Assembly: GCA_934747805.1 (NCBI GenBank)
Contig: CAKVHC010000003.1
Location: 64,402 to 128,401 of the forward strand
DNA length: 64,000 bases
Origin: an uncultured Clostridia bacterium
GTDB taxonomy: Bacteria; Bacillota; Clostridia; Christensenellales; UBA1242
Direction: 5' to 3'
Positions 4,624 to 33,854 of the stretch are shown piece after piece (position 1 is the first letter of the stretch; each line of letters begins with the position of its first letter). Below the pieces are notes generated by a model, which saw only the letters and a program-made list of their open reading frames with translations, was not told the origin of the DNA and made no database searches. A program made the translations under genes and the position numbers.

Positions 4624-5328
4624 TTACATAATCATAGATTTTTTTAGGTTGTTCAGAATTTTCTTTTCCAGTCGAGAAATGTAACTTTGCGAAATTCCCA
4701 TCATATCTGCCACCTGTTTTTGCGTGAACTCATCCTTGCCGTAAAGCCCATATCTCAGCTCGATAATCTTTCTGTCACGTGGGTGCAGTTTGCAAATTGC
4801 CTTACGCAGATAGTCTTTTTCGCAATCCTGCTCGAGTTCTTCGCTCACGGAGTGTTCGTCCGCCAAAATGTCTTGTAACAAAAGTTCGTTGCCGTCGCTA
4901 TCTTGCGAGAGCGGAGCTTCAAGGCTGATGTCGCCGTTAGACTTGCTCGTTTTTCGCAAGTGCATCAAAATCTCGTTTTCAATGCAGCGGCTGGCATATG
5001 TGGCAAGCTTGATATTTTTGTCCGCCTTGAACGACCCCACCGCCTTGATAAGCCCGATTATGCCAATCGACACAAGGTCGTCGAGTTCGACATTGGTGTT
5101 AGAAAACTTTTTGGCAATGTAAATCACCAGTCGCAAGTTGTGTTCAATCAGTGTGGCACGAGCGAAATCGTGCTGGTCGGTGTCAAGCAAGCTCACATAT
5201 TTATTTTCGTCGTCATCACTGAGTGGGTTGGGCAGAGCTTCTTGGCTTATTATGAAGCACACAAGGTCGTCAATGTCGTAATCTAAAAAGTTGTTTATAA
5301 TATTAGTAATCTTATTAAATATATTCAT
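4624..5328 (-). CDS. sigE: Sporulation sigma factor SigE (pro-sigma-E)
   Basis: Sigma-70 regions 2-4 (DLVSIGIIGLIKAV, ATYASRCIENEI, QKQVADMMGISQSYISRLEKK) with an N-terminal pro-sequence. Lies immediately downstream of the spoIIGA-like gene. Confidence 0.8.
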   Translation of the reverse strand: MNIFNKITNIINNFLDYDIDDLVCFIISQEALPNPLSDDDENKYVSLLDTDQHDFARATLIEHNLRLVIYIAKKFSNTNVELDDLVSIGIIGLIKAVGSFKADKNIKLATYASRCIENEILMHLRKTSKSNGDISLEAPLSQDSDGNELLLQDILADEHSVSEELEQDCEKDYLRKAICKLHPRDRKIIELRYGLYGKDEFTQKQVADMMGISQSYISRLEKKILNNLKKSMIM

Positions 5329-5337
5329 AAAATTCTC

Positions 5338-6165
5338 CTAACTTATTTGTTGACAGTTTAAAAGTGCCGTGTAGTTGGCAAAAGTCTTGTAGCATAGTCC
5401 ACAACTCACATCGTTCAGCACTTGCTTTTTGCCGTCTTGCTTTATTTCAAGTCGGTCAATTTTGAAGACCATAATCTTTTGCCCGCTCGACACAGTGTCA
5501 AGGCTTATATAATGCATATCTTTCAGCCCAAGTCCGTCGAAATCTTTCTTAAATAGCCTCTCGAGGCTAATGTCACAAATGTTGGTCATCACTTTTGGCG
5601 TAATAATCACCACAGGCGAGTTGTCTTCGTCAGTAAGGTTGTTGCCCGAGTCAAGATAGGCAAGAGTGGAGTATTTTTTGTCTCCACACACAAATGTGGT
5701 GTCGAAATAGAATTGTTTTTTCTTTTGTCGTTTGGCGAGCATTTTCGTCCAAATCTTAGCCAATATGAAAAATATTACAATGCCGCCGCACATCAGCCAC
5801 ATGATCTGGCTGGGCAGGGCATAACCATTAGCGACTTGTTCGCCACCAAGTGCAAAGACCAGTCCACCGAATCCATATGTATAGGCACACAGGCTCAAAA
5901 GGCAGAAGCACACCTTTTTGAAAGTGGTTTGTCCAAGACAGACAATGACCATAGCACTAGCCAAAGCCACCTTGAACAGATTGATGACGAACGGAGAATT
6001 TAGATATGGAAAAATTAGACTGAAACACGCACCTAATAGACTTGCAAGCATAATCCTAATTTTTTTAGGGTGGATATGGATTGTGCTTGCAGATAAGAAA
6101 AGGAGAAAATAGTCAATTATTGCGTTTTGCAGCAGTGCGTACTCCAAAATTATTTCCATAGCCAA
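5338..6165 (-). CDS. spoIIGA: Sigma-E processing aspartic peptidase SpoIIGA
   Basis: Five N-terminal TM helices plus a C-terminal domain with the YLDSGNNL (DSGN) motif. Adjacent to sigE. Confidence 0.8.
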   Translation of the reverse strand: MAMEIILEYALLQNAIIDYFLLFLSASTIHIHPKKIRIMLASLLGACFSLIFPYLNSPFVINLFKVALASAMVIVCLGQTTFKKVCFCLLSLCAYTYGFGGLVFALGGEQVANGYALPSQIMWLMCGGIVIFFILAKIWTKMLAKRQKKKQFYFDTTFVCGDKKYSTLAYLDSGNNLTDEDNSPVVIITPKVMTNICDISLERLFKKDFDGLGLKDMHYISLDTVSSGQKIMVFKIDRLEIKQDGKKQVLNDVSCGLCYKTFANYTALLNCQQIS

Positions 6166-6310
6166 ATTGTAGCAAAATAAAAATAAATCGCATCCGAAAA
6201 AAATGTTGGTTCAAATCGTCTTTATACTTTTTTTGTTATTTTTTGGAAAAATGAATTTTGTACGCATAATTTTTCTCATGCGGTTAAGAATATAGGAACT
6301 AGGAGTGTGT

Positions 6311-7084
6311 ATGGTAAAGAGAGTGTTTATCAGCGGCATCAACACCGCCACACTACCAAAGATAACCTATAAAGAAGCCAACGACCTATTATATAAGATA
6401 AAGCAGGGTGACGAGCAGGCAAAAGACTATTTCTTTATGTGCAACATTCGTCTTGTGCTGTCAATCACTCAGCGATTTATGACCACCAAAGAAAACGTCA
6501 ACGACGTATTCCAAGTGGGATGTCTAGGTCTGCTTAAAGCCATTGATAATTTTGATTTGAGTGTGGGCGTGAGGTTCTCGACCTATGCCGTGCCGATGAT
6601 TGTGGGCGAGATTAAAAGGTTTTTGCGAGACAATAGTGCAATGCGAGTCAGCCGAAGTCTGCGTGACACGGCATACAAAGTGCTAAAGAGCAAAGAGCGA
6701 CTTTCAAAAGAATATGATGATGTGTCACTTGAACAAGTTGCACTTGACCTGAACATCACATTGAAAGAGGTGATAGATTCAATCGACGCACTTGCCGACC
6801 CAATCTCACTTAGCGACCCTGTCTATACCGACGGCGAAGATGCAATCACAATGCAAGACAGCCTTGTTGACAACGTTTCCACCACTGAGCGACTCACCAA
6901 CAACCTTGACCTCGCTGATGCCATTCGCTTGCTTGAACCACGAGAAAGGCAAATTCTGTCAATGAGATATTTTTCAGGCAAAACCCAAATGGAAGTCAGC
7001 GACACTGTAGGCATTTCACAAGCTCAAGTCAGCCGACTCGAAAAGAACGCTTTGAACCATATCAAGCGATATTTTGACGTATAA
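6311..7084 (+). CDS. sigG: Forespore sigma factor SigG
   Basis: Aligns almost colinearly by eye with B. subtilis SigG (CNIRLVLSITQRF, FQVGCLGLLKAIDNFDL, FSTYAVPMIVGEIKRFLRDN, GKTQMEVSDTVGISQAQVSRLEK). ATG 6311 follows TAGGAG. Confidence 0.8.
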   Translation: MVKRVFISGINTATLPKITYKEANDLLYKIKQGDEQAKDYFFMCNIRLVLSITQRFMTTKENVNDVFQVGCLGLLKAIDNFDLSVGVRFSTYAVPMIVGEIKRFLRDNSAMRVSRSLRDTAYKVLKSKERLSKEYDDVSLEQVALDLNITLKEVIDSIDALADPISLSDPVYTDGEDAITMQDSLVDNVSTTERLTNNLDLADAIRLLEPRERQILSMRYFSGKTQMEVSDTVGISQAQVSRLEKNALNHIKRYFDV

Positions 7085-8629: not shown

Positions 8630-8666
8630 AAAAATATTTGTCATAAAATCGTTGACAAATATTTTT
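8630..8666 (+). terminator. Terminator hairpin whose 3' arm contains the next promoter's -35
   Basis: 14-bp perfect inverted repeat AAAAATATTTGTCA/TGACAAATATTTTT with a 9-nt loop. Confidence 0.55.
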
Positions 8667-8701
8667 ATTGAAATATAATGAAATCGTCGAACAAATGTTC
8701 G
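8652..8701 (+). promoter_or_regulatory. Sigma-A-type promoter with LexA (Cheo) box at the start site
   Basis: TTGACA 8652-8657, a 16-nt spacer, TATAAT 8674-8679, then CGAACAAATGTTCG at 8688-8701 (consensus CGAACRNRYGTTYC). Confidence 0.65.
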
Positions 8702-8727: not shown

Positions 8728-8765
8728 TTTGTACAAAATGCAGACTTTCGACAATTTTGTACAAA
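8728..8765. promoter_or_regulatory. Two copies of the perfect palindrome TTTGTACAAA (candidate repressor operators)
   Basis: Copies at 8728-8737 and 8756-8765, 28 bp centre to centre. Confidence 0.45.
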
Positions 8766-8779
8766 ACTCGCAAAAATAA

Positions 8780-8826: not shown

Positions 8827-9291
8827 ATGTTAGATAAAAAGCACGCTCAATCATTATTGTATTCCTATCGATATTTATTCAAAACTTGTGATTTAATCGA
8901 TAAGATGATAAACAATTACGCCACAAATTTTGGGGTAATGTACGCTCATTCCGACACAGAAACTTTGGCTGAGAAAATGATTGATCTGATGCAGAGAAAA
9001 AAGCACCTAATCAATCTCAAACTCTACATTGACAAGGTGATTAGCCTCACCAATGAGAGCAGTAAAAAGATTTTGGTGCTAATGAGCCAGTTTGAATTTA
9101 AAATTGGCAAAATTCAAGAGATTTTTGGTGTTAGCGAACGCACGGCTTTTCGTTATATGAGAACTGCAGTCGACGAGTTTGTGTCGGTTGCCAATCGTGT
9201 CAAGGGAATAGATATGGAAGCTTTGCAGCAGAATGACTCTTGGATTTTCAACCTATCGCATACATATGCTTGCTCACGCATCACTGCCTAA
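8827..9291 (+). CDS. Putative phage late-gene transcriptional activator (ArpU/RinA-like, C-terminal HTH)
   Basis: 154 aa with a helical N-terminus and a C-terminal IQEIFGVSERTAFRYMRTAVDEF HTH-like segment. Position is upstream of terL. Family call is tentative. Confidence 0.35.
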   Translation: MLDKKHAQSLLYSYRYLFKTCDLIDKMINNYATNFGVMYAHSDTETLAEKMIDLMQRKKHLINLKLYIDKVISLTNESSKKILVLMSQFEFKIGKIQEIFGVSERTAFRYMRTAVDEFVSVANRVKGIDMEALQQNDSWIFNLSHTYACSRITA

Positions 9292-10052
9292 AACTCGCTA
9301 ATTTCTCTCTTTCGTGCTTTTTCTTTCGGTTCTTTGTTAGACAATAATTTCTGCCCTGCGATTAACATAAATGTTATAATTCCAGTAGGCACAGCCAAAA
9401 TACCGATAATAATATTGGTATTTTTTTTGCTTAATTTTGTTTCGGCAACGCTTGGTCTTAGCCAGCTCGGCTCGTCAGTGTATGTCATATTTTCCGTATT
9501 CAAAAGCACTTTGTTCATTTTGTCACACATATCGCTATACACATAGCCGTACAGAGTTTTTTCACCAGTGTATTTGCAATAATACCATACGTTAGTGCGT
9601 TCCTTGATGACTTCCACGCCCTCAATTGCACCTAGATAGGTTATGTTGGTGGTGTAGAGTGGCAGATATTCAATGAGCGTGCTGCTTCCGCCCTCGTCAC
9701 TAGGCTCGCTCCTAAGACTTCGGCTTTGGTCGCCATAAATGCGAAAACTTATGCCAGACGCATACGGACAGTTCGGTTCGCCATCCACAAATGACACCAG
9801 GTTTTTCTTCACATAACCTTTTATGCCGTTATATTCCGCTTTGTAGAAGTTGTCGTTCGCACTGGCAGTAATTTTCACAAAATATGTGCGGTCTATGGCA
9901 AAATACTTGTTGTCAAAATCTTCGCTAATTACAGGCGAACGATACAGATACACATTATATCCATTAACTCGTGCAAAACACGACTGCGATGCGGACGTGT
10001 TTTTTATAGGACAAAATGCCAAAAGTATGGCAAGAACGATTAGAATTTTCAT
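9288..10052 (-). CDS. Secreted/anchored protein with two SH3b-like segments
   Basis: Signal peptide (MKILIVLAILLAFCPI), two regions of the type YNVYLYRSP...GYVKK and LRSEPS...YGYVYS, and a C-terminal TM helix plus basic tail. Confidence 0.4.
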   Translation of the reverse strand: MKILIVLAILLAFCPIKNTSASQSCFARVNGYNVYLYRSPVISEDFDNKYFAIDRTYFVKITASANDNFYKAEYNGIKGYVKKNLVSFVDGEPNCPYASGISFRIYGDQSRSLRSEPSDEGGSSTLIEYLPLYTTNITYLGAIEGVEVIKERTNVWYYCKYTGEKTLYGYVYSDMCDKMNKVLLNTENMTYTDEPSWLRPSVAETKLSKKNTNIIIGILAVPTGIITFMLIAGQKLLSNKEPKEKARKREISEF

Positions 10053-10166
10053 AACACAATTTTAGCAAAACGTACATTTGCGCACATATTTTGGACTTTG
10101 ACAAAATCCGTAAAATAAGCACCAGTTTTGTAGTTTTTTTTGCTAAATTGAACTTTTGGAGAGAAA

Positions 10167-11594
10167 ATGAATAGAGAATTAGTCATCAAATTATTGAAAA
10201 TCAAGCGTGAGCAGGCTCGCAGATACAAAAACAATCGTCTCAGCCGATACAACATGGGCGAGAAGATACACGAGAAACAACTTTTGTTTCACAAATGCCC
10301 CAAGAAGAACCGCTGGGTTTTTGGCGGCAACCGTTCGGGCAAAACAGAGTGCGGAGCGGTGGAAACAATATACTTTGCACGTGGCAACCACCCATATCGT
10401 CATTTGACCCACGCTACGAGCGGCTGGGTGGTGTCACTCACCACGCAGGTTCAACGTGACGTTGCTCAAGCCAAAATTTTGCAATATTTGAACCCAGATT
10501 GGATAGTGGACATAACAATGAGTCAGGGGCGAAAGGATAGCCCACAGCGAGGCGTTATCGACCAATTGGTCATAAAAAACATATTCGGTACGACCAGTAC
10601 AATCGGCTTTAAGAGTTGTGATCAAGGGCGTGAGAAATTTCAAGGCACGTCGCTAGATTATGTCTGGTTTGACGAAGAACCGCCAGAAGATATTTACACC
10701 GAATGCAAAATGCGTCTTTTAGACAAAGACGGCGATATGTTCGGCACTATGACGCCATTAAAAGGCTTGACGTTTGTCTATGACCAAATCTATCTCAACA
10801 AGTCCAGTGACCCAGAAATTTGGACAACGCAAATGTCGTGGGACGACAATCCGTTCATCAGTGAACGTGCCAAAAAGGAAATGTGTGCCAACTTAAGCCC
10901 AGAAGTCTTGCGTTCACGCAAATATGGTGAATTTATGAGTGAAGGCGGACAGGTCTATCCCGAGTTTGACCCGGAAATCAATGTGATTGAGCCATTCAAC
11001 ATTCCTTACGATTGGCAGGACAAACTCTCAATTGACCCGGGACTCAAAAATCCTCTGTCTTGCCATTGGTACGCAGTGGACTATGACGGCAACGTGTATG
11101 TCGTGGCTGAGCATTATGACCGAGAAAAAGACATCAGCTATCACGCAGACTGCATACACAAGATCTGCGAGCGACTAAACTGGCACACCCTGCCAAATGG
11201 CAACATCGAAGCCCTTATAGACAGCGCCGCCAACCAAACAACGCTTGCCAGCACACGCAGTGTGGCTGACCTTTTTTATGACTACGGCATAAGCGTGAAC
11301 ACGAATGTAAACAAGGATCTGTTTTCAGGCATCAACCGAGTGAAGTCCTATCTGTGTGATGCCAACGGCAACCGCAAACTTTTCATATTTTCCACTTGCA
11401 CCAACATGATAAGAGAAATGAAAGGCTATTTGTGGGGCAACGCCGACCATCCAATCAAGCGTGATGATCACTCAATGGACGAGCTTCGCTATTACATAAT
11501 GTCACGCCCAGAAAATCACCAAACTAAGCCTGTGCAAAACGACCGACAAAAGCATTTGAATAGGCTAATTAGGAGGAATAAATATGGCATCTAA
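10167..11594 (+). CDS. terL: Phage terminase large subunit
   Basis: Walker A GGNRSGKTECG, Walker B LDYVWFDEEP, and a C-terminal nuclease-like domain (LSIDPG...VAEHY...DELRY). Confidence 0.85.
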   Translation: MNRELVIKLLKIKREQARRYKNNRLSRYNMGEKIHEKQLLFHKCPKKNRWVFGGNRSGKTECGAVETIYFARGNHPYRHLTHATSGWVVSLTTQVQRDVAQAKILQYLNPDWIVDITMSQGRKDSPQRGVIDQLVIKNIFGTTSTIGFKSCDQGREKFQGTSLDYVWFDEEPPEDIYTECKMRLLDKDGDMFGTMTPLKGLTFVYDQIYLNKSSDPEIWTTQMSWDDNPFISERAKKEMCANLSPEVLRSRKYGEFMSEGGQVYPEFDPEINVIEPFNIPYDWQDKLSIDPGLKNPLSCHWYAVDYDGNVYVVAEHYDREKDISYHADCIHKICERLNWHTLPNGNIEALIDSAANQTTLASTRSVADLFYDYGISVNTNVNKDLFSGINRVKSYLCDANGNRKLFIFSTCTNMIREMKGYLWGNADHPIKRDDHSMDELRYYIMSRPENHQTKPVQNDRQKHLNRLIRRNKYGI

Positions 11595-11895
11595 AACCAA
11601 GCGAACCACCACCACAAAGTCGCTCAAGGGCAAACTGAAAGACTATGCTTTTGGCTATACTTTGACCGAAACTGTCAGTGAATATAACAAAACAGAAAAT
11701 GATGGGTTACAATTAGTGAAACAAAAGATAACAGAAAAAACTGTTCCGCCAGACGTGAATCTAATCAAACTCATATACGACCTAGACGGCGAGCAAGGGG
11801 AGTATGCGAGCATGACAGACGACGAGCTAGAAGCGGAAGCCAATAAGATTATGAAAACTTTAAAGAACGGAGATAAAAATGGAACTAAAACTTAA
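11584..11895 (+). CDS. Hypothetical phage protein
   Basis: AGGAGG RBS. Overlaps the terL stop. 103 aa, acidic C-terminus. Confidence 0.45.
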   Translation: MASKTKRTTTTKSLKGKLKDYAFGYTLTETVSEYNKTENDGLQLVKQKITEKTVPPDVNLIKLIYDLDGEQGEYASMTDDELEAEANKIMKTLKNGDKNGTKT

Positions 11896-12094
11896 TGTCG
11901 TCACCAAATGTGACAACTGTGGCAAGGATGCCCACTTTCGTTTATCTCAAAAGAAAAAATTCACTCGTGCAAACGTGGACTTGTGCGAAGAGTGTTTTCG
12001 TGCGTTGTACGCCTTTATGGGCTGTTATATCACGCCAACCAGTCCAGCACCACCATTCAAACTAAAAAAGGAGAACAAACAAAGTGAAGACTAA
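11879..12094 (+). CDS. Hypothetical small zinc-ribbon phage protein
   Basis: CDNCGK...CEEC (CxxC-x24-CxxC). Translationally coupled on both sides. Confidence 0.4.
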   Translation: MELKLNVVTKCDNCGKDAHFRLSQKKKFTRANVDLCEECFRALYAFMGCYITPTSPAPPFKLKKENKQSED

Positions 12095-13979
12095 ACAGTT
12101 AAAAGAAGAAGAACTTGTCGCCAGCGTAAAACGGGATTTTATCTCTCGCCAACAAGCCCGCAAAAGTTATGAAGCACAGTGGCAACTCAATCTCAATTTT
12201 TTAATGGGCAACCAGTATAGCCAAATTGCACCTAACGGATCGGTTACGACGGCGGACAAACAATATTTTTGGCAAGAAAAAGAAGTGTTCAATCATATCG
12301 CACCGACAATTGAAGTACGCTCTGCCAAAATCGCAAGGCTCAGACCAAATATGGCGGTCTTGCCAGCCAGCACGGACGAACGAGATATGCAGTCGGCTAA
12401 GGTCAGCAAAGATATTTTGAGTGCAGTCAGCAACAAAATCGCTCTCAACGACCTAACCAAACAAGCGATTATTTGGAGCGAAGTGTGTGGCACGGCATTC
12501 TATAAAGTCGTGTGGAACAATGCTCTTGGCAAGGTGATTGCCACTGACGAAAAGGGCAAACTCGTGCGAGAAGGTGACGTGGACGTCATTGTCTGCTCGC
12601 CATTTGAAATCTTTCCTGAAAACTTGTCGTGTGAAAACATTGCCGACCAAAAGAGCATCATTCACGCCAAAGCTTATCATGTAAGTGAAGTCAAGGACAT
12701 TTGGGGCGTGGACGTTATGCCTGAAAGGGTGCATTCATTCTCACTCACCAATCAAACCAATTCGATTGGCGGACTGGGTTATGATGCGAGCATAAATAAA
12801 ATCAGCGACATTGAACTCAAGGACCACTGCGTAGTCATCGAACGATATGAACGACCTACTACAGACCGTCCTAATGGCAGACTTACAATCGTTGCAGGCG
12901 ACAAACTTCTGTTTGACGGCGACCTGCCTTATATCAACGGCGATCAAGGACAGAGAGAACTGCCATTCATTAAACAAATCTCAATCTTTATGCCAGGCTG
13001 TTTCTATGGCACAAGCATCGTAGAGCGTATGATACCAATTCAGCGTGCATACAATGCTGTACGCAACCGAAAACACGAATATCTCAACCGTCTCACAATG
13101 GGCGTTCTCACTGTGGAAGACGGCTCAGTCGACACCGAAATGCTGGAAGAAGAAGGACTTTGCCCAGGCAAAGTGCTTGTCTATCGTCAAGGTGGCAAAG
13201 CCCCAGCCATTATGTCCACAGCCAATAACAACACGGATTTCGATACCGAAGAAAGCAAACTTTTGGACGAGTTTAAGTCGATTTCTGGTGTCAGCGACCT
13301 GATGCGTGAATCTTTTGCCAATTACACGAATATGTCAGGCGTGGCATTGCAACTTTTGAGTGAACAAGACGACACTCGCATTGCTAGTTCGCTAGACAGT
13401 GTCAAGTCGGCAATGTGCATAATCGGTAAATATGTGCTTCGCTTATACAAACAATTCGCTGTCATTCCACGTCTACTTAAACTCGTGGGTGAGAATGGCA
13501 AGGTGGAAATGTATTATTGGTCAAGCAACGAAATTTGCTCGGACGACGTTGTGCTGGACACCACCAGTGACGCTAGTGAAACGATTGCCCAAAAACGCAC
13601 TATGGTACTCGACCTATTGAAGAGTGGCTTGCTCTATGACAATGAAGGCAAACTTTCACAAAATATGCGTAAAAAATGCCTAGATCTTCTCGGCTTTGGC
13701 GTGTGGGAGCATACTCAAGACCTCACCACTTTGCAGATCAATCACGCACACCAAGAGTGCATAGACATGCTGGCTGGCAAGGAAATAACCCCAACGTCAA
13801 TCGACGACCACAAATTGCACATTGATGAGCATATTGCTTTTATGCTCAGTGAAGATTTTAGACAAGCTGTGGAAAAGACTCCAGACTTGTTCAAAAAGTT
13901 TGAACACCATGTCAACATACATAAACAGATTTTAGCCAAAGAAAACATAAACGAAAATGAAGATAAAAAAGGAGATTAA
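12084..13979 (+). CDS. Phage portal protein
   Basis: 631-aa ORF between terL and the scaffold/capsid genes, with a GTG start after AAGGAG. Call rests on size and gene order. Confidence 0.6.
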   Translation: MKTKQLKEEELVASVKRDFISRQQARKSYEAQWQLNLNFLMGNQYSQIAPNGSVTTADKQYFWQEKEVFNHIAPTIEVRSAKIARLRPNMAVLPASTDERDMQSAKVSKDILSAVSNKIALNDLTKQAIIWSEVCGTAFYKVVWNNALGKVIATDEKGKLVREGDVDVIVCSPFEIFPENLSCENIADQKSIIHAKAYHVSEVKDIWGVDVMPERVHSFSLTNQTNSIGGLGYDASINKISDIELKDHCVVIERYERPTTDRPNGRLTIVAGDKLLFDGDLPYINGDQGQRELPFIKQISIFMPGCFYGTSIVERMIPIQRAYNAVRNRKHEYLNRLTMGVLTVEDGSVDTEMLEEEGLCPGKVLVYRQGGKAPAIMSTANNNTDFDTEESKLLDEFKSISGVSDLMRESFANYTNMSGVALQLLSEQDDTRIASSLDSVKSAMCIIGKYVLRLYKQFAVIPRLLKLVGENGKVEMYYWSSNEICSDDVVLDTTSDASETIAQKRTMVLDLLKSGLLYDNEGKLSQNMRKKCLDLLGFGVWEHTQDLTTLQINHAHQECIDMLAGKEITPTSIDDHKLHIDEHIAFMLSEDFRQAVEKTPDLFKKFEHHVNIHKQILAKENINENEDKKGD

Positions 13980-13981
13980 TT

Positions 13982-14686
13982 ATGGAAAATTTGGAACAAC
14001 CAAACGTTAGTTGTCCATTAGCAGACGATGAGCAAATTTTAAATCAAGGAGGCGAGGGCAATAGACAAGTTGTTACTCATTCTACGAATGATTCGCTTGG
14101 CTCTACTAATCTTGAATCGGCATCGCAAAATGCGAAAATAGACACTAGCAACGGCTCCAAAGATTATGGCAAATTCGCCAGTGCGGACGAACTCTTGAAG
14201 GCTTACAATAGCCTTCAAGCCGAGTTCACACGAAAATGTCAGGCACTCAATGCCTTAGAGTCCAATACAAGTTCGGTCGAACCATTGGAACTTATTCAAA
14301 AGATAAAACAATCGGTTGACGAGTTTAGTGCCAGTCGTCCGCTTGCCCAAAAGTACGCCAAAGAGATTATGGACAAAGTTATTTCTAGCGAGAGTCCACT
14401 AGACCCAAAAAGTCTAAACAAGGCATACACTTCAGTTTTGGAATCACATTTTGCCGAGCCAGAAAACTTGGTGCGTGACGAAAACTTTTTGTCTAACTAT
14501 ATTTTTAGCGACAGTGCTTTGTGCGACCAAATCGTGACCAAATATCTTTCCAAACTCGCCGACAAAAAGACTGTGCCGCTCGTGGCAAAGTCGTCAAAGT
14601 CGAGCGTATCTCTCAGGCAAATAACCAATCCTCAGACAATCAACGAAGCAGGGGAAATGGCGAGAAAAATTATCACTAAAAAATAG
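13982..14686 (+). CDS. Putative capsid scaffolding protein
   Basis: 234 aa, low complexity and helical (ADELLKAYNSLQAEFTRKCQAL). Sits directly between portal and capsid. Confidence 0.45.
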   Translation: MENLEQPNVSCPLADDEQILNQGGEGNRQVVTHSTNDSLGSTNLESASQNAKIDTSNGSKDYGKFASADELLKAYNSLQAEFTRKCQALNALESNTSSVEPLELIQKIKQSVDEFSASRPLAQKYAKEIMDKVISSESPLDPKSLNKAYTSVLESHFAEPENLVRDENFLSNYIFSDSALCDQIVTKYLSKLADKKTVPLVAKSSKSSVSLRQITNPQTINEAGEMARKIITKK

Positions 14687-14694
14687 GAGATTTT

Positions 14695-15912
14695 ATGATT
14701 AGTTTACAATCAGCAGAAAACGCTTTGAAAGAAGCGTATCTTTCAGTGGCTTGCAACCAACTGAACACCAATGCCAATCCACTTTTGGCTAAAATCAAGC
14801 AATCTAGCACCGACGTATATGGCAAAAATATCATCAAGCCTTGCCAAGTAGGTCTTAACGGCGGTGTAGGTGCAGGAACGGAAACAGGCAGTTTGCCAAC
14901 TGCATCAGGCAACAACTACAAACAATTCAAGACCACACTCAAAAACCTTTATGGTACATTTGAAATCAGCGACAAAGCCATTCGTGCATCCAGTGCAAAT
15001 CCTGGCGCATTCGTAAACCTTTTGAACGCTGAAATTGACGGACTTTTGACTGCCAGCAAGTTCAATCTTGGCAGAATGTTGTATGGTGACGGCAGCGGCA
15101 AAGTTTGCACAGTTGCTTCATACAATTCTACAAGCAAAGTTGTCACAGTAGATAGTGTAAAAGGCGTTGCCGAAGGCATGATCCTTGACTGCTACTCTGG
15201 TGACTCAATCGTTGCCAACAACTCTGGTCTTAAAGTAGCGGCTGTTGACCGTGTCAACAAAACTATCAAGTTTGCTACAGATCCAGGCACAGCATTGACA
15301 ACTTCACATGCCTTCTACATTCAAGGCTCAAAGGACAATGAAATCACTGGTCTTGGAGCAATCTTTGGTTCAAGCACAAGCTTGTACGGACTCACTCGTG
15401 CCGACAACACTTGGCTCACTCCATACAAATCTACTAGCGCAATCGAAATCAGTGACAGCGCAATGCAAACTGCAATCGACTCTCTAGAAGAAAACACTGG
15501 AGCAAACATCGACTTCATCACTTGTGCAAGTGACGTGCGTCGTGCATATCAACAATATCTTGCTAACTACAGCCGCAACATTGACGTTGTGAATTTGGAA
15601 GGCGGTTTCAAAGCCTTGACTTTCAACGGCATTCCTGTAATCAGCGACCGTTTCATTGACAACGGCACAATGTATATGTTGGACACATCGAAATTCACTC
15701 TTTGTCAGCTCTGCGATTGGGAATGGTTAGAAGGTGAAGGCGGTAACATCATTCGTCAAAAACCAGGTTATCCGGCTTACACTGCAACATTGGTTAAATA
15801 CGCTGACTTGTTGTGCGAATTGCCAGCAGGCCAAGCAAAGTTCACCAACGTTAAGTCTACTGTGACTAACCCATTTGTGACAGTCGTTGAAAAGAGTGCT
15901 AGCAGCAACTAA
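14695..15912 (+). CDS. Phage major capsid protein (HK97-fold type)
   Basis: 405 aa in the capsid position. The FNLGRMLYGDGSGKV segment resembles the HK97-family LxGDGxG motif. High codon-bias appearance. Confidence 0.6.
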   Translation: MISLQSAENALKEAYLSVACNQLNTNANPLLAKIKQSSTDVYGKNIIKPCQVGLNGGVGAGTETGSLPTASGNNYKQFKTTLKNLYGTFEISDKAIRASSANPGAFVNLLNAEIDGLLTASKFNLGRMLYGDGSGKVCTVASYNSTSKVVTVDSVKGVAEGMILDCYSGDSIVANNSGLKVAAVDRVNKTIKFATDPGTALTTSHAFYIQGSKDNEITGLGAIFGSSTSLYGLTRADNTWLTPYKSTSAIEISDSAMQTAIDSLEENTGANIDFITCASDVRRAYQQYLANYSRNIDVVNLEGGFKALTFNGIPVISDRFIDNGTMYMLDTSKFTLCQLCDWEWLEGEGGNIIRQKPGYPAYTATLVKYADLLCELPAGQAKFTNVKSTVTNPFVTVVEKSASSN

Positions 15913-15935
15913 TTTGTCTTGGACAGGGGAGAAAA

Positions 15936-16271
15936 ATGAAAATCAGACTTTTTCACGATTTATTTAATATTGTTGGGCGAGTAAAGAGTATAGATTCGCA
16001 TTATGAGATTGTATTTGACACAGAGCGAAAATGTTTTGAGATTCATAATAGCAGACAGGCAGGCAACACGTTCTGCCTGTCTGTTGATTCTGCCTCGCTA
16101 GACAGTCGTGTCGTGGACAAACTTTTACGCTCACGCACCGAATTTGCACGAGATATCTTCAACGAAATTGACGATTACAATGCAAAAATTACTAGATTAA
16201 ACAATGAAAAATCCAAAGAAGAAATTTATTCAAAAATACACCATCAATCACAAAAAAGGAGTGAATTATGA
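15936..16271 (+). CDS. Hypothetical phage protein
   Basis: GGGGAG RBS. 111 aa. Confidence 0.45.
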   Translation: MKIRLFHDLFNIVGRVKSIDSHYEIVFDTERKCFEIHNSRQAGNTFCLSVDSASLDSRVVDKLLRSRTEFARDIFNEIDDYNAKITRLNNEKSKEEIYSKIHHQSQKRSEL

Positions 16272-16912
16272 ACGCCTTACATATTATTTTGAATAGTGCT
16301 AGGCTACTCGACGACAGCGAACTTGCCACCAGCGAAACGCTTTTAGCAGTGGAAGACAGATATTCGCCTTTCAACACCACTGTCACCGAAGGCAGTGAAA
16401 GCGGAACGAGCAGTGAACAAGCTACTGAGTTGGAGTCAATTTACACATCTTATCCACGCCTAAAAACCTATCTTTCCGCATTAAATTTTGTCGTTAGCGA
16501 GTTGGCAGAAGGATATTATCGCATCCCAGCCAGCGTCAAAGCTGTGACGACGGATAACAAAGTTTTTATTCGCAAACTAGGTGGTTTTGCCGGAATTATT
16601 TCAGTGACCGATGCGTTAGGAAATTATGTCGACTATTCAATGGCGGAAGACAATGCCATAGTTTTTGAAAAAAACGGTGTCTACACCATTAACTATTATC
16701 AAATTCCAGTTGTCAAAGACATATATTCCAAACTTGGTTATTTTGCCGATAGGGTAGATTTCAATCTGCTCGCATACGGCGTGTGTGCCAGTTATTGTTT
16801 GATGACAGGGCGATATGCCGAGTTTAACGAGTTCGATAAAATCTACCGTGCAAGACTGCCTAAAAAGGTGGTTGGCAAAGTCATAACAATGCCATACAAG
16901 AGGTGGGTATGA
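16268..16912 (+). CDS. Hypothetical phage structural protein (possible head-tail adaptor by position)
   Basis: ATGA overlap with the upstream gene. 214 aa. Confidence 0.4.
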   Translation: MNALHIILNSARLLDDSELATSETLLAVEDRYSPFNTTVTEGSESGTSSEQATELESIYTSYPRLKTYLSALNFVVSELAEGYYRIPASVKAVTTDNKVFIRKLGGFAGIISVTDALGNYVDYSMAEDNAIVFEKNGVYTINYYQIPVVKDIYSKLGYFADRVDFNLLAYGVCASYCLMTGRYAEFNEFDKIYRARLPKKVVGKVITMPYKRWV

Positions 16913-18372
16913 TTAGCACCAAAACCACAAAATATGTCCTTAACGATTTCACTGTAGACAAGACGGACTACGCCGACAAGTTTGTGGTTAAAGAGCAATA
17001 CGGTTATCTACTCAAAAACCGCAAACTTACTACAGGTTTGGGTTTTGAAAGCCTGACTTTACCACAGAATATGACAGTTGGTAGCACAGAAGATTCTGTA
17101 GACTATTCCTCGCTAAAAGACACAATGACAAAATTGCAAATATTCTCATATTTTAAAGGTTATCACAAGGATAGCTCGGCAACTAATAAGTATGATAGAC
17201 GTTTGCAATTCTATGGTGAGGACGGCGGAATATATGAACTGTCCCCATTCGTCAACGACACAGAAATTTATCGCATCTACCCAAACAATCTGACGCTAAC
17301 CAGCATTCCAGTGGCACTCAACTTTAGGCAAAACGGCGAAGACATGGTAATCTTGTCCAATTCAACGGACAATATGCTAGTTTGGAAATGTGCGACCAAC
17401 GCACCGCAAGCGTTCAACTTGGATTATCATCTCACCAGCCTGTGCGAAAACGACGGCATTTTGTATGCAACAACTGACGGCGATGCCAAAACGCTTTTCT
17501 TCACCACCACGCTAGACCCAACTCTAGTGGATGAAACCAATAGTGGCACGATTGACTTGACGGATAACAGAGGTGCAAGTCTCAAGGTTATCTCATTCAA
17601 GGGCTATGTGTATGTGTTTAGAGAATATGGAATCACCAAACTCACACGTTTGGCAAGCGGCACTTACGCCATTTCACAGCTCTATTCCAGTCCAAGCCGA
17701 ATTTATGACAAAACGGTGACAGTGTGCGGCGACAAAATCATCTTCTTGTCACGCAACGGACTCAATAGTTTCAATGGCATTAATGTCACGAAAATCACTA
17801 CACCATACGATGACGTCTTGTGTCAAACCGAAAATTCCCATGCAATGGCTGAGTGTTTGGGCAACAAATACTATCTAGCTTGCACGTTAAACTTTCCAGA
17901 TTTAAAGGCAAGCGAGCAAAACTTGACTCACAACGCCTTTATGGCGGTTGACATCACCAATTTTGACACGAGCGTCGTGCGTAGCGTAGATATTGCGTCA
18001 ATGCTCGCCGTCAACGATTTCGCAATGCAAAAATTGGTCGTCACCTTCAACAACGCCAACCAGCGTGAGATAGGGCAGTTGAGCGAGAAAGGAAAATTTC
18101 TGACACAAAATACCACCAAAACAATTTCAACCAATAAGATAGACTTTGGTGAAAAAGGCAGACGCATTTCCAAACTGGAAATCAATGCATCGCTCGGCAC
18201 AAAAGTCGACATTGTGACCGACCAAGCAACCCTGCACTTCGTTTGCACCAAAGACGGTTACAACGCTTTTGCACCATATGCGAAGGCAACCAGTGCCAAA
18301 ATTTTGGTGGACGCCAACAGCGATTCGGCGTTTCTGGATGAAATAACTTTAACCTCTACGGAGATAAAATGA
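16909..18372 (+). CDS. Hypothetical phage structural protein, repeat/beta-rich (possible short tail or receptor-binding component)
   Basis: ATGA overlap at 16909-16912 (the track ORF starts at GTG 16903). 487 aa with recurring beta-strand-like segments. Confidence 0.4.
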   Translation: MISTKTTKYVLNDFTVDKTDYADKFVVKEQYGYLLKNRKLTTGLGFESLTLPQNMTVGSTEDSVDYSSLKDTMTKLQIFSYFKGYHKDSSATNKYDRRLQFYGEDGGIYELSPFVNDTEIYRIYPNNLTLTSIPVALNFRQNGEDMVILSNSTDNMLVWKCATNAPQAFNLDYHLTSLCENDGILYATTDGDAKTLFFTTTLDPTLVDETNSGTIDLTDNRGASLKVISFKGYVYVFREYGITKLTRLASGTYAISQLYSSPSRIYDKTVTVCGDKIIFLSRNGLNSFNGINVTKITTPYDDVLCQTENSHAMAECLGNKYYLACTLNFPDLKASEQNLTHNAFMAVDITNFDTSVVRSVDIASMLAVNDFAMQKLVVTFNNANQREIGQLSEKGKFLTQNTTKTISTNKIDFGEKGRRISKLEINASLGTKVDIVTDQATLHFVCTKDGYNAFAPYAKATSAKILVDANSDSAFLDEITLTSTEIK

Positions 18373-18515
18373 CAAAACAGCAATACCAAAATTGGATAAG
18401 AAACATAGAATGTAACGAGTGCGGATGTAGTGATTATATTGGTTGGATAGTTAGTCCTGTTGCCAAAGTGGACACGCAGCCACACTCAAAAAGGAGCAAA
18501 AATGAAAAAGTTTAA
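18369..18515 (+). CDS. Small Cys-rich hypothetical protein (48 aa), not in ORF track
   Basis: ATG 18369 overlaps the upstream TGA as ATGA. Hand translation gives MTKQQYQNWIRNIECNECGCSDYIGWIVSPVAKVDTQPHSKRSKNEKV. Its end overlaps the holin start. Confidence 0.3.
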   Translation: MTKQQYQNWIRNIECNECGCSDYIGWIVSPVAKVDTQPHSKRSKNEKV

Positions 18516-18780
18516 GAATGGCGGTTTTTGGGTTAGCCTAGTAAGTGCCATACTGCTCATTTTGCAAGCCATTTTTGGCTGGAAAATCGACAATGCACTT
18601 GTGACGGAAATTTCAAGTAGCGTGCTTGGACTTTTGGTAGTGGTTGGCATTATTAAGGATCATGACACCGCAAAAAAGTCAAATGACACCACTGACCCTA
18701 CGCCTGATGAAACTATTTCACCAGACGACAACAAGGAAAACTCAGAAACAGAAACCGAGCAGGATTCAAACAAAAATTAA
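18502..18780 (+). CDS. Phage holin (phi-LC3-like family pattern)
   Basis: AAGGAG RBS. FKNGGFWVSLVSAILLILQAIFGW plus a second TM (VLGLLVVVGIIKD) and an acidic tail. The track ORF starts at TTG 18460. Confidence 0.65.
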   Translation: MKKFKNGGFWVSLVSAILLILQAIFGWKIDNALVTEISSSVLGLLVVVGIIKDHDTAKKSNDTTDPTPDETISPDDNKENSETETEQDSNKN

Positions 18781-18806
18781 AGGAGTATGCAAATACTCCT
18801 TTTTTT
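18779..18806 (+). terminator. Rho-independent terminator after the holin gene
   Basis: AGGAGTAT/ATACTCCT stem, a 4-nt loop and TTTTTT. Confidence 0.7.
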
Positions 18807-18808
18807 CA

Positions 18809-18919
18809 GGCCTAATGTTCGGACACGAGATTGGAAGCACGATCACAAAGTCAGTTTACACACATGCTAGTGTCGAAAGCGAAAAAGAGAGTATAACTCT
18901 CTTCGAAACCAAATTTTAA
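18809..18919 (+). pseudogene. Relic of a tyrosine recombinase (integrase) gene: last ~36 codons only
   Basis: Hand translation gives GLMFGHEIGSTITKSVYTHASVESEKESITLFETKF*. This matches the integrase C-terminal LGH-x5-T-x4-Y-x-H box with the catalytic Tyr. There is no upstream catalytic domain, since the frame runs into the holin gene. Confidence 0.5.
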
Positions 18920-18952
18920 CAACAAAACTGTACACTTTCTGTACACTTTTTT

Positions 18953-18990
18953 TAAACAAAAAAATATATAGACATTTTCAGTCTATATAT
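18953..18990 (-). terminator. Terminator of the tRNA-Gln(CUG) transcript
   Basis: ATATATAGAC/GTCTATATAT 10-bp stem. The minus strand is followed by ATTTTTTTGTTT. Confidence 0.6.
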
Positions 18991-19020
18991 TGTGGTAGTA
19001 GTCGTTTCAAAAACACTATA

Positions 19021-19095
19021 TGGCTGGGGTAGCTGGATTCGAACCAGCGGATGACGGATTCAGAGACCGTAGCCTTACCACTTGGCGATACCCCA
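19021..19095 (-). tRNA. tRNA-Gln (anticodon CTG)
   Basis: Hand-folded cloverleaf: UGGGGUA acceptor, anticodon loop CTCTGAA, T-loop TTCGAAT, encoded CCA. Confidence 0.85.
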
Positions 19096-21874: not shown

Positions 21875-23917
21875 ATGGATTATGAATCAAAAAGATTAAG
21901 AATTACATTGTGGACAGTGGTCGCATTACTCATATTTAGCATTGTAGGCGTGTGCATTTTGTTCGCAGTGAAAATGCACCCTGAAACTCCAACTCCAAAT
22001 GTTGTCAACGTAGGCACTCGAATTAGTCGAGGGAAGGGGTTCAAAAGCACCTCAACCAACGCTAATATTTGGGACGGCACCAGCACAACCGACTGGACAG
22101 GCTCAGGCACAGAAACCGACCCATACTTAATCACCAAAGGTAGCCAGTTGGCGGGTCTGGGAGAGCATGCAAGTGACTATGCCAATATGTTCTTTAAACT
22201 TGCCAATGACATAGATATGTGTGGAGAATCATATGGTTTTATGCCAATTGTTGACTTTCGGGGAACTTTTAATGGTGATAATCATTGCTTGACCAACTTG
22301 CAATTTTCCCCATTCTGGAGTTATGAATCAGGTCTGTTCTATAGGCTAAATGATTCTACCATATCTAACCTAATTATCGAAGTTATCTTTGTCGAGAACC
22401 CGACATCATCTTTTGGAGGATTGGCATATTCTGTTGAAAATTCAACAGTTTCAAATGTTAATATTTCTTTTTTGAATGCGTTGACTACGAAGTATTCAGA
22501 ATATTACGATGGAATGAAATTTGCTGGTCTAGTAAACGAGGCAAGAAGTTCAACAATAGAGGATTGTACAGTTAACAATTTTACGATTGAAGCAAAAATG
22601 GATCAATCTGGTGCACTAACAAATCTTGGTGGTCTTGTTGCAGAAGCTTATGATTCTACGATAACTAGTTGTAATGCTGAAAGTTATATAAATATTGAAT
22701 TTACAAAGGCGACAACTAATACGGCGTTATATTCTGCAATCGGTGGTCTAATTGGGTATGAGGAAGGTAACAATAGAATATATACCAACAATATTTCTTG
22801 TGGAAAAATATTAGTAACCGATATAAAAACATCGCATACTGCGTACATTGGCGGAATGTTAGGATTGTCTGGTTCACAAAATGGTGACGCACTAAAAATG
22901 TGCAATAACCTATCTCAATGCGATATAGAAATAACTAGCCGCAACGCAAACATTTTAGTTGCTGGACTAGGAAATAATATACATAACTACATTTCTAGCA
23001 AATACAACATTGTAAATGCTACGATAAAAGCAAGTTCCAAGTTGAAGTCAGCGGGAGGAGTAGATAGTAACGCACTGTCAACATCTAAAGTTGTATATAA
23101 TAAAAACAAATATTCGGTCAGTGGTGCAAGTAAGAATAATACGGTTGGCGCAACTAGTGACGCAAATATGAAACTTCGTTCCACCTATTCAAGTTGGACG
23201 GACTTTGATACATATTGGGTTATCGATGAAAAATACAACAATGGCTATCCATATTTAAAAGCGTTAATTCCAGTTGCCAATGTTACACTTTTCGAAGGCA
23301 AGGGTACAGAAACTGAACCATATTTAATTAAAACACAGCAAGATTTGTTAAATATTAATGAATACTATGCAGATACAGACAATGCGAAAGCAGACGCGTA
23401 TTTCAAGTTGATGAACGACATTGACGTGAGCAAAGACTCAAACAACTTGCCAATCCATTTCAAACCAATTTGCTACAACAGAGAATTCGACGGCTATTTC
23501 GACGGCAATGGCAAAACTATTAGCGGACTTCTTATCGACAACCAGTATGAATATGCAGGGTTGTTCGGCACTGTCGCAGCTAACCACTGGGTGAAAAACC
23601 TAACCGTGAAGGGTAATATTTACTGGGATCAAGCGTATGCAGTAGGTGGTGTTGCTGGCAGAGTGTTGGCAGGTGGATACTTACAAGATTGCACATTCGA
23701 AGGCAATATCATCGGCGTACTCAACACCAAAACTAGCACTGAAACCAGTGGCGTGATAGGTAAGTATGAAATAAATGGAACAATCGACTGCACAGCAACA
23801 TACACCGACCTAAAATACGCCAAGATAGGTGGCACGACCGACGCACCAACTTACACATATTACTTATACGACTGGGCGCAGCTCACCACCAGTTTGTACA
23901 ACAAAAAGGTTAGCTAA
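21875..23917 (+). CDS. GLUG-motif repeat surface protein, N-terminal membrane anchor (paralogue A)
   Basis: N-terminal TM (ITLWTVVALLIFSIVGVCILFAV). Repeated GGL[AVI]G-type GLUG units (FGGLAYS, LGGLVAEA, IGGLIGYE, VGGVAGRV). Paralogue of 54525-56621. Confidence 0.6.
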   Translation: MDYESKRLRITLWTVVALLIFSIVGVCILFAVKMHPETPTPNVVNVGTRISRGKGFKSTSTNANIWDGTSTTDWTGSGTETDPYLITKGSQLAGLGEHASDYANMFFKLANDIDMCGESYGFMPIVDFRGTFNGDNHCLTNLQFSPFWSYESGLFYRLNDSTISNLIIEVIFVENPTSSFGGLAYSVENSTVSNVNISFLNALTTKYSEYYDGMKFAGLVNEARSSTIEDCTVNNFTIEAKMDQSGALTNLGGLVAEAYDSTITSCNAESYINIEFTKATTNTALYSAIGGLIGYEEGNNRIYTNNISCGKILVTDIKTSHTAYIGGMLGLSGSQNGDALKMCNNLSQCDIEITSRNANILVAGLGNNIHNYISSKYNIVNATIKASSKLKSAGGVDSNALSTSKVVYNKNKYSVSGASKNNTVGATSDANMKLRSTYSSWTDFDTYWVIDEKYNNGYPYLKALIPVANVTLFEGKGTETEPYLIKTQQDLLNINEYYADTDNAKADAYFKLMNDIDVSKDSNNLPIHFKPICYNREFDGYFDGNGKTISGLLIDNQYEYAGLFGTVAANHWVKNLTVKGNIYWDQAYAVGGVAGRVLAGGYLQDCTFEGNIIGVLNTKTSTETSGVIGKYEINGTIDCTATYTDLKYAKIGGTTDAPTYTYYLYDWAQLTTSLYNKKVS

Positions 23918-33505: not shown

Positions 33506-33582
33506 TGGGGTGGATACAAGGACTCGAACCTTGGACAACCAGATCCACAATCTGGCGCTCTACCAACTGAACTATATCCACC
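33506..33582 (-). tRNA. tRNA-His (anticodon GTG)
   Basis: Encoded G-1, acceptor GTGGATA, anticodon loop TTGTGGA, discriminator C, CCA. Confidence 0.9.
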
Positions 33583-33586
33583 ATAC

Positions 33587-33663
33587 TGGTGTGCTCGGGG
33601 GGATTCGAACCCTCGACCCTCGCCTTAGAAGGGCGATGCTCTATCCAACTGAGCTACGAGCAC
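33587..33663 (-). tRNA. tRNA-Arg (anticodon TCT)
   Basis: Acceptor GTGCTCG/CGAGCAC, anticodon loop CTTCTAA, T-loop TTCGAAT, CCA. Confidence 0.85.
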
Positions 33664-33722
33664 ATATTAATTTGTTTTATGAGCCTGTATTTGTTTGCAC
33701 ACATTACAAATATACTTATTGT

Positions 33723-33741
33723 GGAGCGGGTGATGGGAATA
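33723..33741 (-). repeat. Isolated copy of the last 19 nt of tRNA-Gly(UCC)
   Basis: Identical to 33855-33873 (TGGAGCGGGTGATGGGAAT). It starts at the same T-loop position as the tRNA-His fragment. Confidence 0.8.
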
Positions 33742-33854
33742 ATAATCTGACGATTATTGGCTTCGCACGAACTTTGTCCGCTTCAAACGACTGTCGTCGT
33801 TTTGTTGCTAACGCAACTCCATCACCTTGCAAAGCAAAGCAGAAATACAAACTA

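Follow-up and report, generated by a model that had tools for sequence, protein, structure and literature searches.

A conserved short-tailed particle module beside tRNA-Gln in uncultured Christensenellales, with a probable gene-transfer-agent-like role

Is a compact block of phage head genes, lying in a bacterial chromosome between ordinary host genes, the residue of a decaying prophage or a particle-forming module that the host has retained? This question is raised by an element of about 10 kb in an uncultured Clostridia bacterium (Christensenellales; UBA1242), where it is anchored between the gene of a single-stranded-DNA-binding protein (SSB) and tRNA-Gln(CTG). The stretch analysed, hereafter the window, comprises 64,000 nt of the forward strand (GCA_934747805.1, contig CAKVHC010000003.1, positions 64,402-128,401), and its own numbering is used throughout. 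A preliminary description of this DNA had put forward both possibilities. The comparative, structural, and regulatory evidence assembled here indicates, with a probability of about 0.9, that the element is a selected and functional particle module and, with a probability of about 0.6, that it descends from a short-tailed phage of P22/SU10 type, is owned by the host and vertically inherited, and would work in the manner of a gene transfer agent (GTA). The reading as a remnant is effectively excluded.

A search with the capsid protein returned more than 6,400 relatives, hundreds of them about 70% identical and located on long chromosomal contigs of metagenome-assembled genomes (MAGs) of Clostridia. 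When one genome per species was scanned with the same protein, 67 loci were obtained in about 65 genomes, labelled Candidatus Onthoplasma, uncultured Christensenella/Christensenellaceae, or "Clostridia bacterium" (NCBI places Onthoplasma in Christensenellaceae). Where the contig reaches, the order is shared: sigE and spoIIGA (both minus strand), sigG, pda, ssb, the regulator, a minus-strand SH3 gene, TerL, a small open reading frame (ORF), a Cys ORF of about 70 aa, portal, scaffold, capsid, ORFs of about 108, 186, and 476 aa, and the holin, while a few loci (e.g., L026, L035, and L044) gave no sigE, spoIIGA, or sigG hit in the 10-kb flank. The distance from capsid to holin is about 3.6 kb throughout the 67 loci, with never an extra gene between the two, and at none of these loci was a fuller prophage or an extra tail, lysin, integrase, or replication gene found. 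A tRNA gene follows within 3 kb after the holin in 46 of 56 loci, and in about 38 of those it is tRNA-Gln(CTG). No att-like repeats of at least 10 nt were found between the two element boundaries.

The core ORFs are all full length in 54-63 species. Ratios of nonsynonymous to synonymous substitution (dN/dS), calculated against the nearest relative (L004; dS 0.3-1.1), are 0.017 for TerL, 0.022 for the portal, 0.032 for the capsid protein, 0.060 and 0.065 for the 214-aa and 487-aa proteins, 0.020 for the regulator, and 0.044 for the SH3 protein, values that stand beside 0.006, 0.024, and 0.071 for the host proteins SigG, Pda, and SpoIIGA, respectively. Moreover, mean pairwise identity among 33 species is 0.79 for TerL, 0.78 for the capsid protein, and 0.79 for SigG, and the distance matrices of element and host genes are closely correlated (Mantel r 0.935; none of 2000 permutations reaches this value). 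Since the distances of the element track those of its host neighbours, the element is vertically inherited, and it is under strong purifying constraint. Conserved synteny and low dN/dS at this tRNA-Gln were the signs of retention that the preliminary description had proposed to look for in related genomes. Its suggestion of a retained particle-forming module is borne out by the intact ORFs, the purifying ratios, and the co-divergence with host neighbours, whereas the decaying prophage that it had offered as the other option finds no relative with a full-length prophage at this site.

The element runs from the regulator through the minus-strand SH3 gene, TerL, two small ORFs, portal, scaffold, capsid, and the 111-aa, 214-aa, and 487-aa proteins to the holin, and ends at a terminator just before tRNA-Gln. 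Its genes and right-hand boundary are as follows:

8827-9291, plus strand: regulator, 154 aa, matching phrog_36 ("transcriptional regulator") at an expectation value (E) of 5e-8; candidate switch.
9288-10052, minus strand: SH3 membrane protein, 254 aa, with SH3_2 and SH3_3 matches.
10167-11594, plus strand: TerL, the large terminase (packaging ATPase and nuclease), matching Terminase_6N/6C and phrog_2.
11584-11895, plus strand: 103-aa ORF, conserved in 56 loci; possible packaging accessory.
11879-12094, plus strand: 71-aa zinc-ribbon-like protein with a Cys4 pattern.
12084-13979, plus strand: portal protein of P22/SU10 type, matching P22_portal PF16510 at 1e-18 and phrog_156.
13982-14686, plus strand: scaffold-like protein in the position between portal and capsid, with helical, low-complexity sequence.
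14695-15912, plus strand: major capsid protein of podovirus type, matching NF033394 capsid_maj_Podo (E 3e-84) and phrog_14242 (4e-58).
15936-16271, plus strand: conserved 111-aa ORF, present in 64 loci.
16268-16912, plus strand: 214-aa ORF, probable head-to-tail adaptor, in the position of P22 gp4 between capsid and nozzle.
16909-18372, plus strand: 487-aa predicted tail nozzle/hub, a beta-propeller by fold match (mechanical ORF start GTG 16903).
18369-18515, plus strand: 48-aa Cys-rich ORF, doubtful and lineage-specific.
18502-18780, plus strand: holin, 92 aa from ATG 18502 (real start), matching Phage_holin_1, phrog_297, and TIGR01598.
18780-18806, plus strand: operon terminator, recognised in the sequence as a stem-loop with a T-run; the scan found the same stem-loop on the opposite strand.
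19021-19095, minus strand: tRNA-Gln(CTG), identified by ARAGORN, the conserved right-hand boundary.

The ORF map agrees with the tightly coupled plus-strand array between 10167 and 18780 that had been described earlier, including the overlaps: the ORFs are intact, gaps do not exceed 23 nt, and several stops and starts overlap. The ORFs themselves had been placed correctly, but the earlier gene list had left out the 254-aa SH3 gene on the minus strand, which separates the regulator from TerL and belongs to the unit. This protein carries a signal peptide, two SH3b-like domains, and a C-terminal membrane anchor, and its gene lies on the opposite strand, always between the regulator and TerL, in all 56 genome loci where it was detected and in several distant loci from IMG/VR. 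Because the regulator and the SH3 gene are both present in some IMG/VR contigs down to about 49% capsid identity, they belong to the unit, of which the SH3 gene is a conserved accessory member. The 48-aa Cys-rich ORF, counted earlier as part of the array, does exist at its position, but was found only in the window and in the closest relative, L004.

Among the packaging and head proteins, TerL keeps the Walker A, Walker B, and nuclease SIDPG motifs in 54/54 species checked, and the capsid protein is 62-97% identical in about 65 species. In most of the loci listed, the ORF just ahead of the portal gene has about 70 aa and a KCDxxGC...LCxxC pattern. The product of the gene between portal and capsid is conserved yet fast-evolving, with no family hit and no protease signature in Pfam, PHROGs, and NCBIfam; its position and sequence character suggest a scaffold role. 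For the 103-aa family, profile searches gave no family or PDB sequence match, and PHROGs only unnamed families or chance-level hits. Likewise, the 111-aa protein, which may be a head completion or decoration protein, had no family or PDB sequence match in Pfam, PHROGs, and profile searches. PDB sequence profile searches with the SH3 and regulator families also returned nothing significant. At the other end of the operon, the holin is short (92-106 aa) in the window and its closest relative and about 220 aa in most species (orthologues of L006-L063), with a long C-terminal tail that is acidic, disordered, of low complexity, and highly variable and in many cases terminates in a conserved FNIVN.

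Structure prediction was applied to the two largest gene products between capsid and holin that had carried no assignment. The AlphaFold model of the 487-aa protein has a pLDDT (predicted local distance difference test) of 89.8, and when it was compared with the PDB by Foldseek, the best-scoring chains all came from tails or portal-tail complexes of podoviruses: first the Pa223 tail (E 1e-18, template-modelling score 0.72), then the VP1 portal-tail, the entry for P22 gp10-gp26, the portal-tail complex of GP4, the complex with Sf6 gp8, the tail of SU10, and the T7 nozzle gp12. Since the model is confident and the top matches are exclusively to podovirus tails and portal-tail complexes, the 487-aa protein is, by predicted fold, a podovirus tail nozzle, although tblastn found no sequence match to it in deposited phages and a profile search no significant sequence match in the PDB. 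The 214-aa protein is probably the head-to-tail adaptor, as its best fold matches are phage connector/adaptor chains (E 6e-3 to 3e-2); a PDB profile search with its family gave nothing significant, and PHROGs only unnamed families or chance-level hits. The structure searches that the preliminary description had called for have thereby provided a tail gene where none had been recognised.

The remainder of the earlier list of missing genes stands in part. No integrase, replication, repressor/lysogeny, fibre, or endolysin gene was found in the whole window with Pfam, PHROGs, and NCBIfam, and no small terminase (TerS) is recognisable upstream of TerL, where the opposite-strand SH3 gene lies. A prohead protease and long-tail genes, also listed as missing, are not expected in podoviruses of P22/T7 type. 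The absences of note are those of fibres or spikes, needle, ejection proteins, endolysin, and replication and lysogeny genes. The particle encoded by the operon would be of a minimal short-tailed type, without fibres, ejection proteins, or endolysin, and of the options raised earlier the minimal short-tailed particle or GTA-like module fits best, given the element's own nozzle and probable own adaptor.

A search of the window for a second locus found none. A regular-expression search for the late-promoter motif described below gave nothing convincing elsewhere in the window, and the extra tail-side genes that occur in distant lineages have no relative there by tblastn. A fibre role for the GLUG-motif protein encoded at 21875-23917 was rejected, given its N-terminal membrane anchor and its lack of conservation beside the element. 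Two proteins of this kind are encoded in the window (680 aa, 21875-23917, with a weak match to an unnamed PHROG family; 698 aa, 54525-56621); they are probably surface proteins and are unlinked to the element in other species.

How might such a module be switched on? The preliminary description had proposed an SOS-regulated gene of ArpU/RinA type as its switch, and the noncoding signals at the regulator and at TerL bear on this proposal:

8652-8679, plus strand: predicted sigma-70-type promoter of the regulator gene, TTGACA-16-TATAAT, with 12/12 matches in a consensus scan.
8688-8701, strandless: LexA-type (Cheo) box CGAACAAATGTTCG, 8 nt after the promoter -10; predicted SOS operator.
8728-8767, strandless: TTTGTACAAAA, present twice in the interval from the SOS box to the regulator start.
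10098-10150, plus strand: late-promoter-like motif TTGACA ... AGTTTTGTAG ... GCTAAATTG, from the TerL-upstream alignment.

The box CGAACAAATGTTCG is the sole GAAC-N4-GTTC in the window; one per 64 kb is the chance expectation, but its position is conserved. The exact core occurs in the spacer between SSB and regulator in 18 of 52 loci, and a sequence with at most two mismatches to CGAAC-N4-GTTCG in 46 of the 52, compared with 4.6% of random 250-nt pieces. In most species the box is embedded in TTTGTACAAAATAGAACAAATGTTCGATAAAA, that is, within the spacer of a promoter-like element, and a common variant is AAAACAAATGTTCG. A GAAC-N4-GTTC sequence located at a promoter is the form of the Cheo-type operator of the Bacillota LexA regulon, and the sequence here has it. 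In most other species the word TTTGTACAAAA stands immediately next to the LexA-type box; it may be a -35-like element or a second operator. Five TGTACA words occur between 8000 and 19500 (8730, 8758, 18929, 18940, and 19210), all at the noncoding ends of the element and none inside the 10 kb of genes; those upstream of the regulator form TTTGTACAAAA.

The candidate switch itself did not match the family that had been proposed. No NCBIfam model matched the regulator at 1e-4, phage_arpU and phage_rinA included, and no Pfam model at 0.01, whereas Pfam Sigma70_r4_2 was found in 18 of 27 orthologues (best E 2e-6). The SOS part of the earlier proposal is supported by the conserved box; the ArpU/RinA assignment is not supported by a family match, and the protein is a sigma-region-4-type regulator, which may nevertheless work like the ArpU/RinA activators. 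It lies upstream of TerL even in lineages with about 50% capsid identity. The regulator and the SH3 gene are convergent, and with this minus-strand gene intervening, TerL needs a promoter of its own. Upstream of TerL most species have TTTTGRCAAGTTTRGG, a spacer, and CGAGTTTTRGTGTAAATTA, a conserved motif that would be a late promoter used with assistance from the regulator. The chain from LexA to activator to operon is inferred from the conservation of these motifs. On the minus strand, the SH3 gene is preceded (10052-10067) by a conserved extended -10, TGCTAAAAT in the window and TGYTAAAAT in most species, 6 nt upstream of the ATG and without a Shine-Dalgarno sequence, an arrangement that suggests a leaderless, constitutive mRNA divergent from TerL.

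Taken together, the genes kept are those for a DNA-filled head with a stub tail and for opening of the membrane, and a working sequence can be proposed. Upon DNA damage, LexA would leave the promoter box of the gene for the 154-aa sigma-region-4 activator, and this activator would in turn switch on the conserved promoter before TerL. Portal, scaffold, and capsid protein would then form procapsids, and TerL, acting without a recognisable sequence-specific small terminase, would fill them with the DNA at hand, probably chromosomal headfuls smaller than the 10-kb locus. The probable 214-aa adaptor and the 487-aa nozzle would close the portal, and the holin, together with a lysin encoded elsewhere or with host autolysins, would release the particles, whose receptor-binding fibres, if any, would be encoded elsewhere. 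Two attributes of a GTA can be seen: chromosomal structural and packaging genes of phage origin, vertically inherited and under purifying selection, and, within these 64 kb, which set the scope of the statement, no genes for autonomous replication, integration/excision, or lysogeny.

Several points weigh against this GTA-like reading. The window contains no fibre/receptor-binding, ejection, or endolysin gene; therefore, delivery of DNA to a recipient is unsupported, and lysis needs a partner. The model of the 214-aa protein is weak (pLDDT 54, built from only 5 sequences), and the dN/dS values come from the nearest relative, as those from distant pairs are unreliable, with dS saturated, and were not used. 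In addition, LexA binding at the box and the TerL-upstream motif as target of the regulator are both deduced from motif conservation alone, and the box is missing in distant lineages of the module.

These points leave room for other explanations in unequal measure. A prophage remnant with a chance-intact head block would account for the lack of integrase, replication, lysogeny, fibre, and endolysin genes and for the position beside a tRNA gene, a typical phage integration site. However, it would have to explain an intact 10-kb block with every core ORF in about 65 species, dN/dS of 0.02-0.07 at dS up to about 1, TerL and capsid as conserved as SigG, and a site with neither a fuller prophage in any relative nor att-like repeats; recent horizontal copies are likewise argued against by the co-divergence with host genes, and the remnant is accordingly highly improbable. 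The same fixed position and co-divergence speak against a complete, very small, active integrated podovirus, for which compactness and possession of its own regulator, packaging genes, head, stub tail, and holin could be adduced. Such a phage would occupy an identical site in about 65 species with no replication, integration, or lysogeny gene, and the contigs of about 16 kb that resemble small genomes are chromosomal, so that we give it hardly any credence. A capsid-forming satellite of the type of capsid-forming phage-inducible chromosomal islands (cf-PICIs), or a fibre-less particle completed by a helper phage and spreading its own DNA, is unlikely, if less remote. It would fit a unit that has its own TerL, portal, scaffold, and capsid yet no fibres; the extra genes between nozzle and holin in distant lineages indicate that tail accessories are exchangeable, and SOS induction would coincide with that of helper prophages. 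Nevertheless, no integrase, excisionase, primase/replicase, or recognisable small terminase and no boundary repeats accompany the element, its chromosomal position is fixed and co-divergent with the host across the clade, and with its own nozzle and probable adaptor a helper's tail is not needed. The earlier suggestion of a satellite that borrows tails loses ground for these reasons.

More weight, while still well on the doubtful side, is due to a retained particle or lysis module selected for something other than gene transfer, namely altruistic lysis that the SOS response triggers and that releases DNA, interference with infecting phages through sequestration of their DNA or parts, or a role linked to the neighbouring sporulation genes. 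This explanation draws on the lack of receptor-binding and ejection proteins among the genes found, on the holin and the conserved cell-wall-binding SH3 membrane protein within the unit, on the neighbourhood of sigE, spoIIGA, sigG, and pdaB in most species, and on the precedent of PBSX, a DNA-packaging particle that acts as a killing agent (PMC12946183). On the other hand, selection is strongest on TerL, portal, and capsid, and the TerL ATPase and nuclease motifs are kept, which argues that DNA packaging itself is maintained. Sporulation control, suggested by the sigE/spoIIGA/sigG neighbours, was set aside: regulation of a sporulation type did not come to light, the operator that is conserved resembles that of LexA, and copies in distant lineages are located away from sigG, so that the linkage looks like inherited synteny. 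A host-owned GTA-like module is thus the reading preferred here.

The capsid family extends far beyond the clade. In a library clustered at 50%, 2,667 clusters are related to the capsid protein, and 303 of these score below E 1e-30. Relatives with 39-44% capsid identity have the compact module again, composed of TerL, one small ORF, portal, scaffold, capsid, three further ORFs (about 106, 175-185, and 497 aa), and a BhlA-type holin; it is found there in different chromosomal surroundings, flanked on either side by host genes. Moreover, 62 IMG/VR "viral" contigs (L076-L137) carry the capsid family; the longer ones have the same module, several with host ssb and pda, and some, down to about 49% capsid identity, also have the regulator and the minus-strand SH3 gene. 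A small free phage, suggested by recurring contigs of about 16 kb, was rejected, as these are chromosomal pieces that carry host genes at either end. Some distant lineages have one to four extra genes of unknown function between nozzle and holin, which may represent fibres or needles that the Christensenellales lineage has lost or relocated. In L093 (13573-16861) these encode proteins of 340, 485, 282, and 85 aa with no Pfam match, and in L090 (13427-14326) a 299-aa DUF7934 protein. In L074, on a 487-kb contig (7000-14800; 44% capsid identity), the module begins with small ORFs and the portal, TerL is not adjacent, and ABC transporter genes lie upstream; TerL may have been relocated there to another locus.

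Comparison with characterised particles places the element near short-tailed phages. In P22, as is generally known, TerL, portal, scaffold, capsid, adaptor, and nozzle follow one another in the order seen here; the portal is of the shared P22/SU10 type, and the nozzle fold matches entries for P22, Sf6, T7, SU10, Pa223, and VP1. Podoviruses of P22/T7 type have no prohead protease or tape measure, as is the case in the element. In contrast to P22, SU10, and T7, the element is without tailspikes or fibres, needle/plug, ejection proteins, a recognisable TerS, endolysin, and replication or lysogeny genes, and is not mobile. The nearest deposited phages by capsid are the Shocker and Jasmine-like actinobacteriophages, 22-28% identical over more than 90% of the length, which have complete genomes of about 45 kb and come from Actinobacteria. 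Since the head module of Shocker has the same order as the element (terminase, two small genes, portal, scaffold-position gene, capsid), the lack of a small terminase ahead of TerL could be characteristic of the lineage. With cf-PICIs the element shares a small chromosomal locus, its own terminase, portal, and capsid, and a dependence on something else for infectivity. These islands carry an integrase, modules for regulation and replication, and a TerS, pass from host to host, and rely on the tails of a helper, whereas the element has no mobility genes, a fixed position, and its own nozzle.

Among GTAs, RcGTA resembles the element in being phage-derived, vertically inherited, under purifying selection, and without replication or integration genes, and the wiring of RcGTA into host regulation would have its counterpart in the LexA-type box. 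However, RcGTA is siphovirus-like, with an HK97-type head, a protease, a long tail, and control by CtrA and quorum sensing, whereas the element is podovirus-like, smaller, associated with a LexA-type box, and without sequence relationship to it. RcGTA also has parts encoded away from its main cluster, among them fibres and lysis genes (summarised in PMC12946183).

A closer analogue in design is FpGTA of Faecalibacterium prausnitzii, which the same source (PMC12946183, Nat Commun 2026) describes as a 10.5-kb operon of ten ORFs (TerS-like, TerL, portal, scaffold, capsid, and short-tail-type proteins), forming tail-less-looking heads of about 40 nm with random host DNA fragments of about 8.5 kb, and complemented by a second locus with fibre, holin, and endolysin genes. 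Its supplement lists the capsid RCH50849.1 with an N4-gp56 family annotation and a Prp-like protease gene between portal and capsid. Both systems occupy chromosomes of gut Clostridia as operons of about 10 kb with about ten ORFs and are near-ubiquitous in their clade, with TerL, portal, a scaffold-position gene, capsid, and short-tail-type proteins and no replication or lysogeny genes. This likeness in operon size and short-tail proteins is one of design, not of shown homology. The FpGTA capsid is annotated as N4-gp56, whereas the capsid of the element matches capsid_maj_Podo only, with no N4-gp56 hit at E up to 0.01; between portal and capsid the former has the Prp-like protease gene and the latter the scaffold-like protein; and the TerS-like gene of FpGTA has no recognisable counterpart before TerL, where the element has the opposite-strand SH3 gene. 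Furthermore, the holin closes the main operon of the element, with no second locus found in the window, whereas holin, endolysin, and fibres of FpGTA belong to its second locus. An SOS box and a sigma-type activator, as found in the element, are not mentioned for FpGTA in the sections of PMC12946183 consulted. The element is therefore not a shown member of the FpGTA family, from which annotation and layout set it apart.

The surroundings of the element are those of a bacterial chromosome. The left flank consists of host genes for SigE, SpoIIGA, SigG, a PdaB-like deacetylase, and a PRK05813-type SSB, and Pfam searches of the other large ORFs found ordinary host genes in the remaining window. 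The usual arrangement is a co-directional spoIIGA-sigE-sigG; here, spoIIGA-sigE (4624-7084) lies on the minus strand, divergent from the plus-strand sigG, and the same holds in related loci that reach that far. The genes downstream include those of a patatin-like phospholipase (24986-25777) and a Fic-domain protein (28633-29637), and tRNA clusters lie at 33506-33928 and 39153-39526. The genes for RNase J, a methyltransferase-position protein, and a U32 peptidase at 42688-46470 are direct neighbours of the module in the distant locus L071.

Full-text literature searches found no description of this locus under Christensenellales gene transfer agents or under sporulation- or Clostridia-linked domesticated capsid modules. 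GTA-like packaging is recorded in the supplement of PMC12946183 for two MAGs of Christensenellaceae, HGM11616 sp900761075 with fragments of about 4.1 and 7.1 kb and QANA01 sp019420265 with fragments of about 6.3 kb, and no locus is assigned there. The operon is an obvious candidate for this packaging, of which it may be the source. A wider proposal, to which we attach somewhat less than an even chance, is that the element represents an independent domestication of a podovirus into a GTA: a second podovirus-type family, unrelated in capsid lineage to FpGTA, that would predate much of the Christensenellales radiation, persist in modified form in other Clostridia, be controlled from a LexA box through a sigma-type activator to a late promoter, and be the source of the 4-7-kb packaging seen for Christensenellaceae in human faecal virus-like particles.

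Few GTA families are known, and FpGTA (2026) is the only podovirus-like one described; the present locus would add a separate family in Christensenellales, a mostly uncultured gut order. Virus-calling pipelines file this host-owned element as a provirus and thus inflate prophage counts for these taxa. At the same time, the locus offers a simple regulatory model that can be checked, and it makes the GTA-like packaging of Christensenellaceae, to which no gene cluster had been assigned, directly testable.

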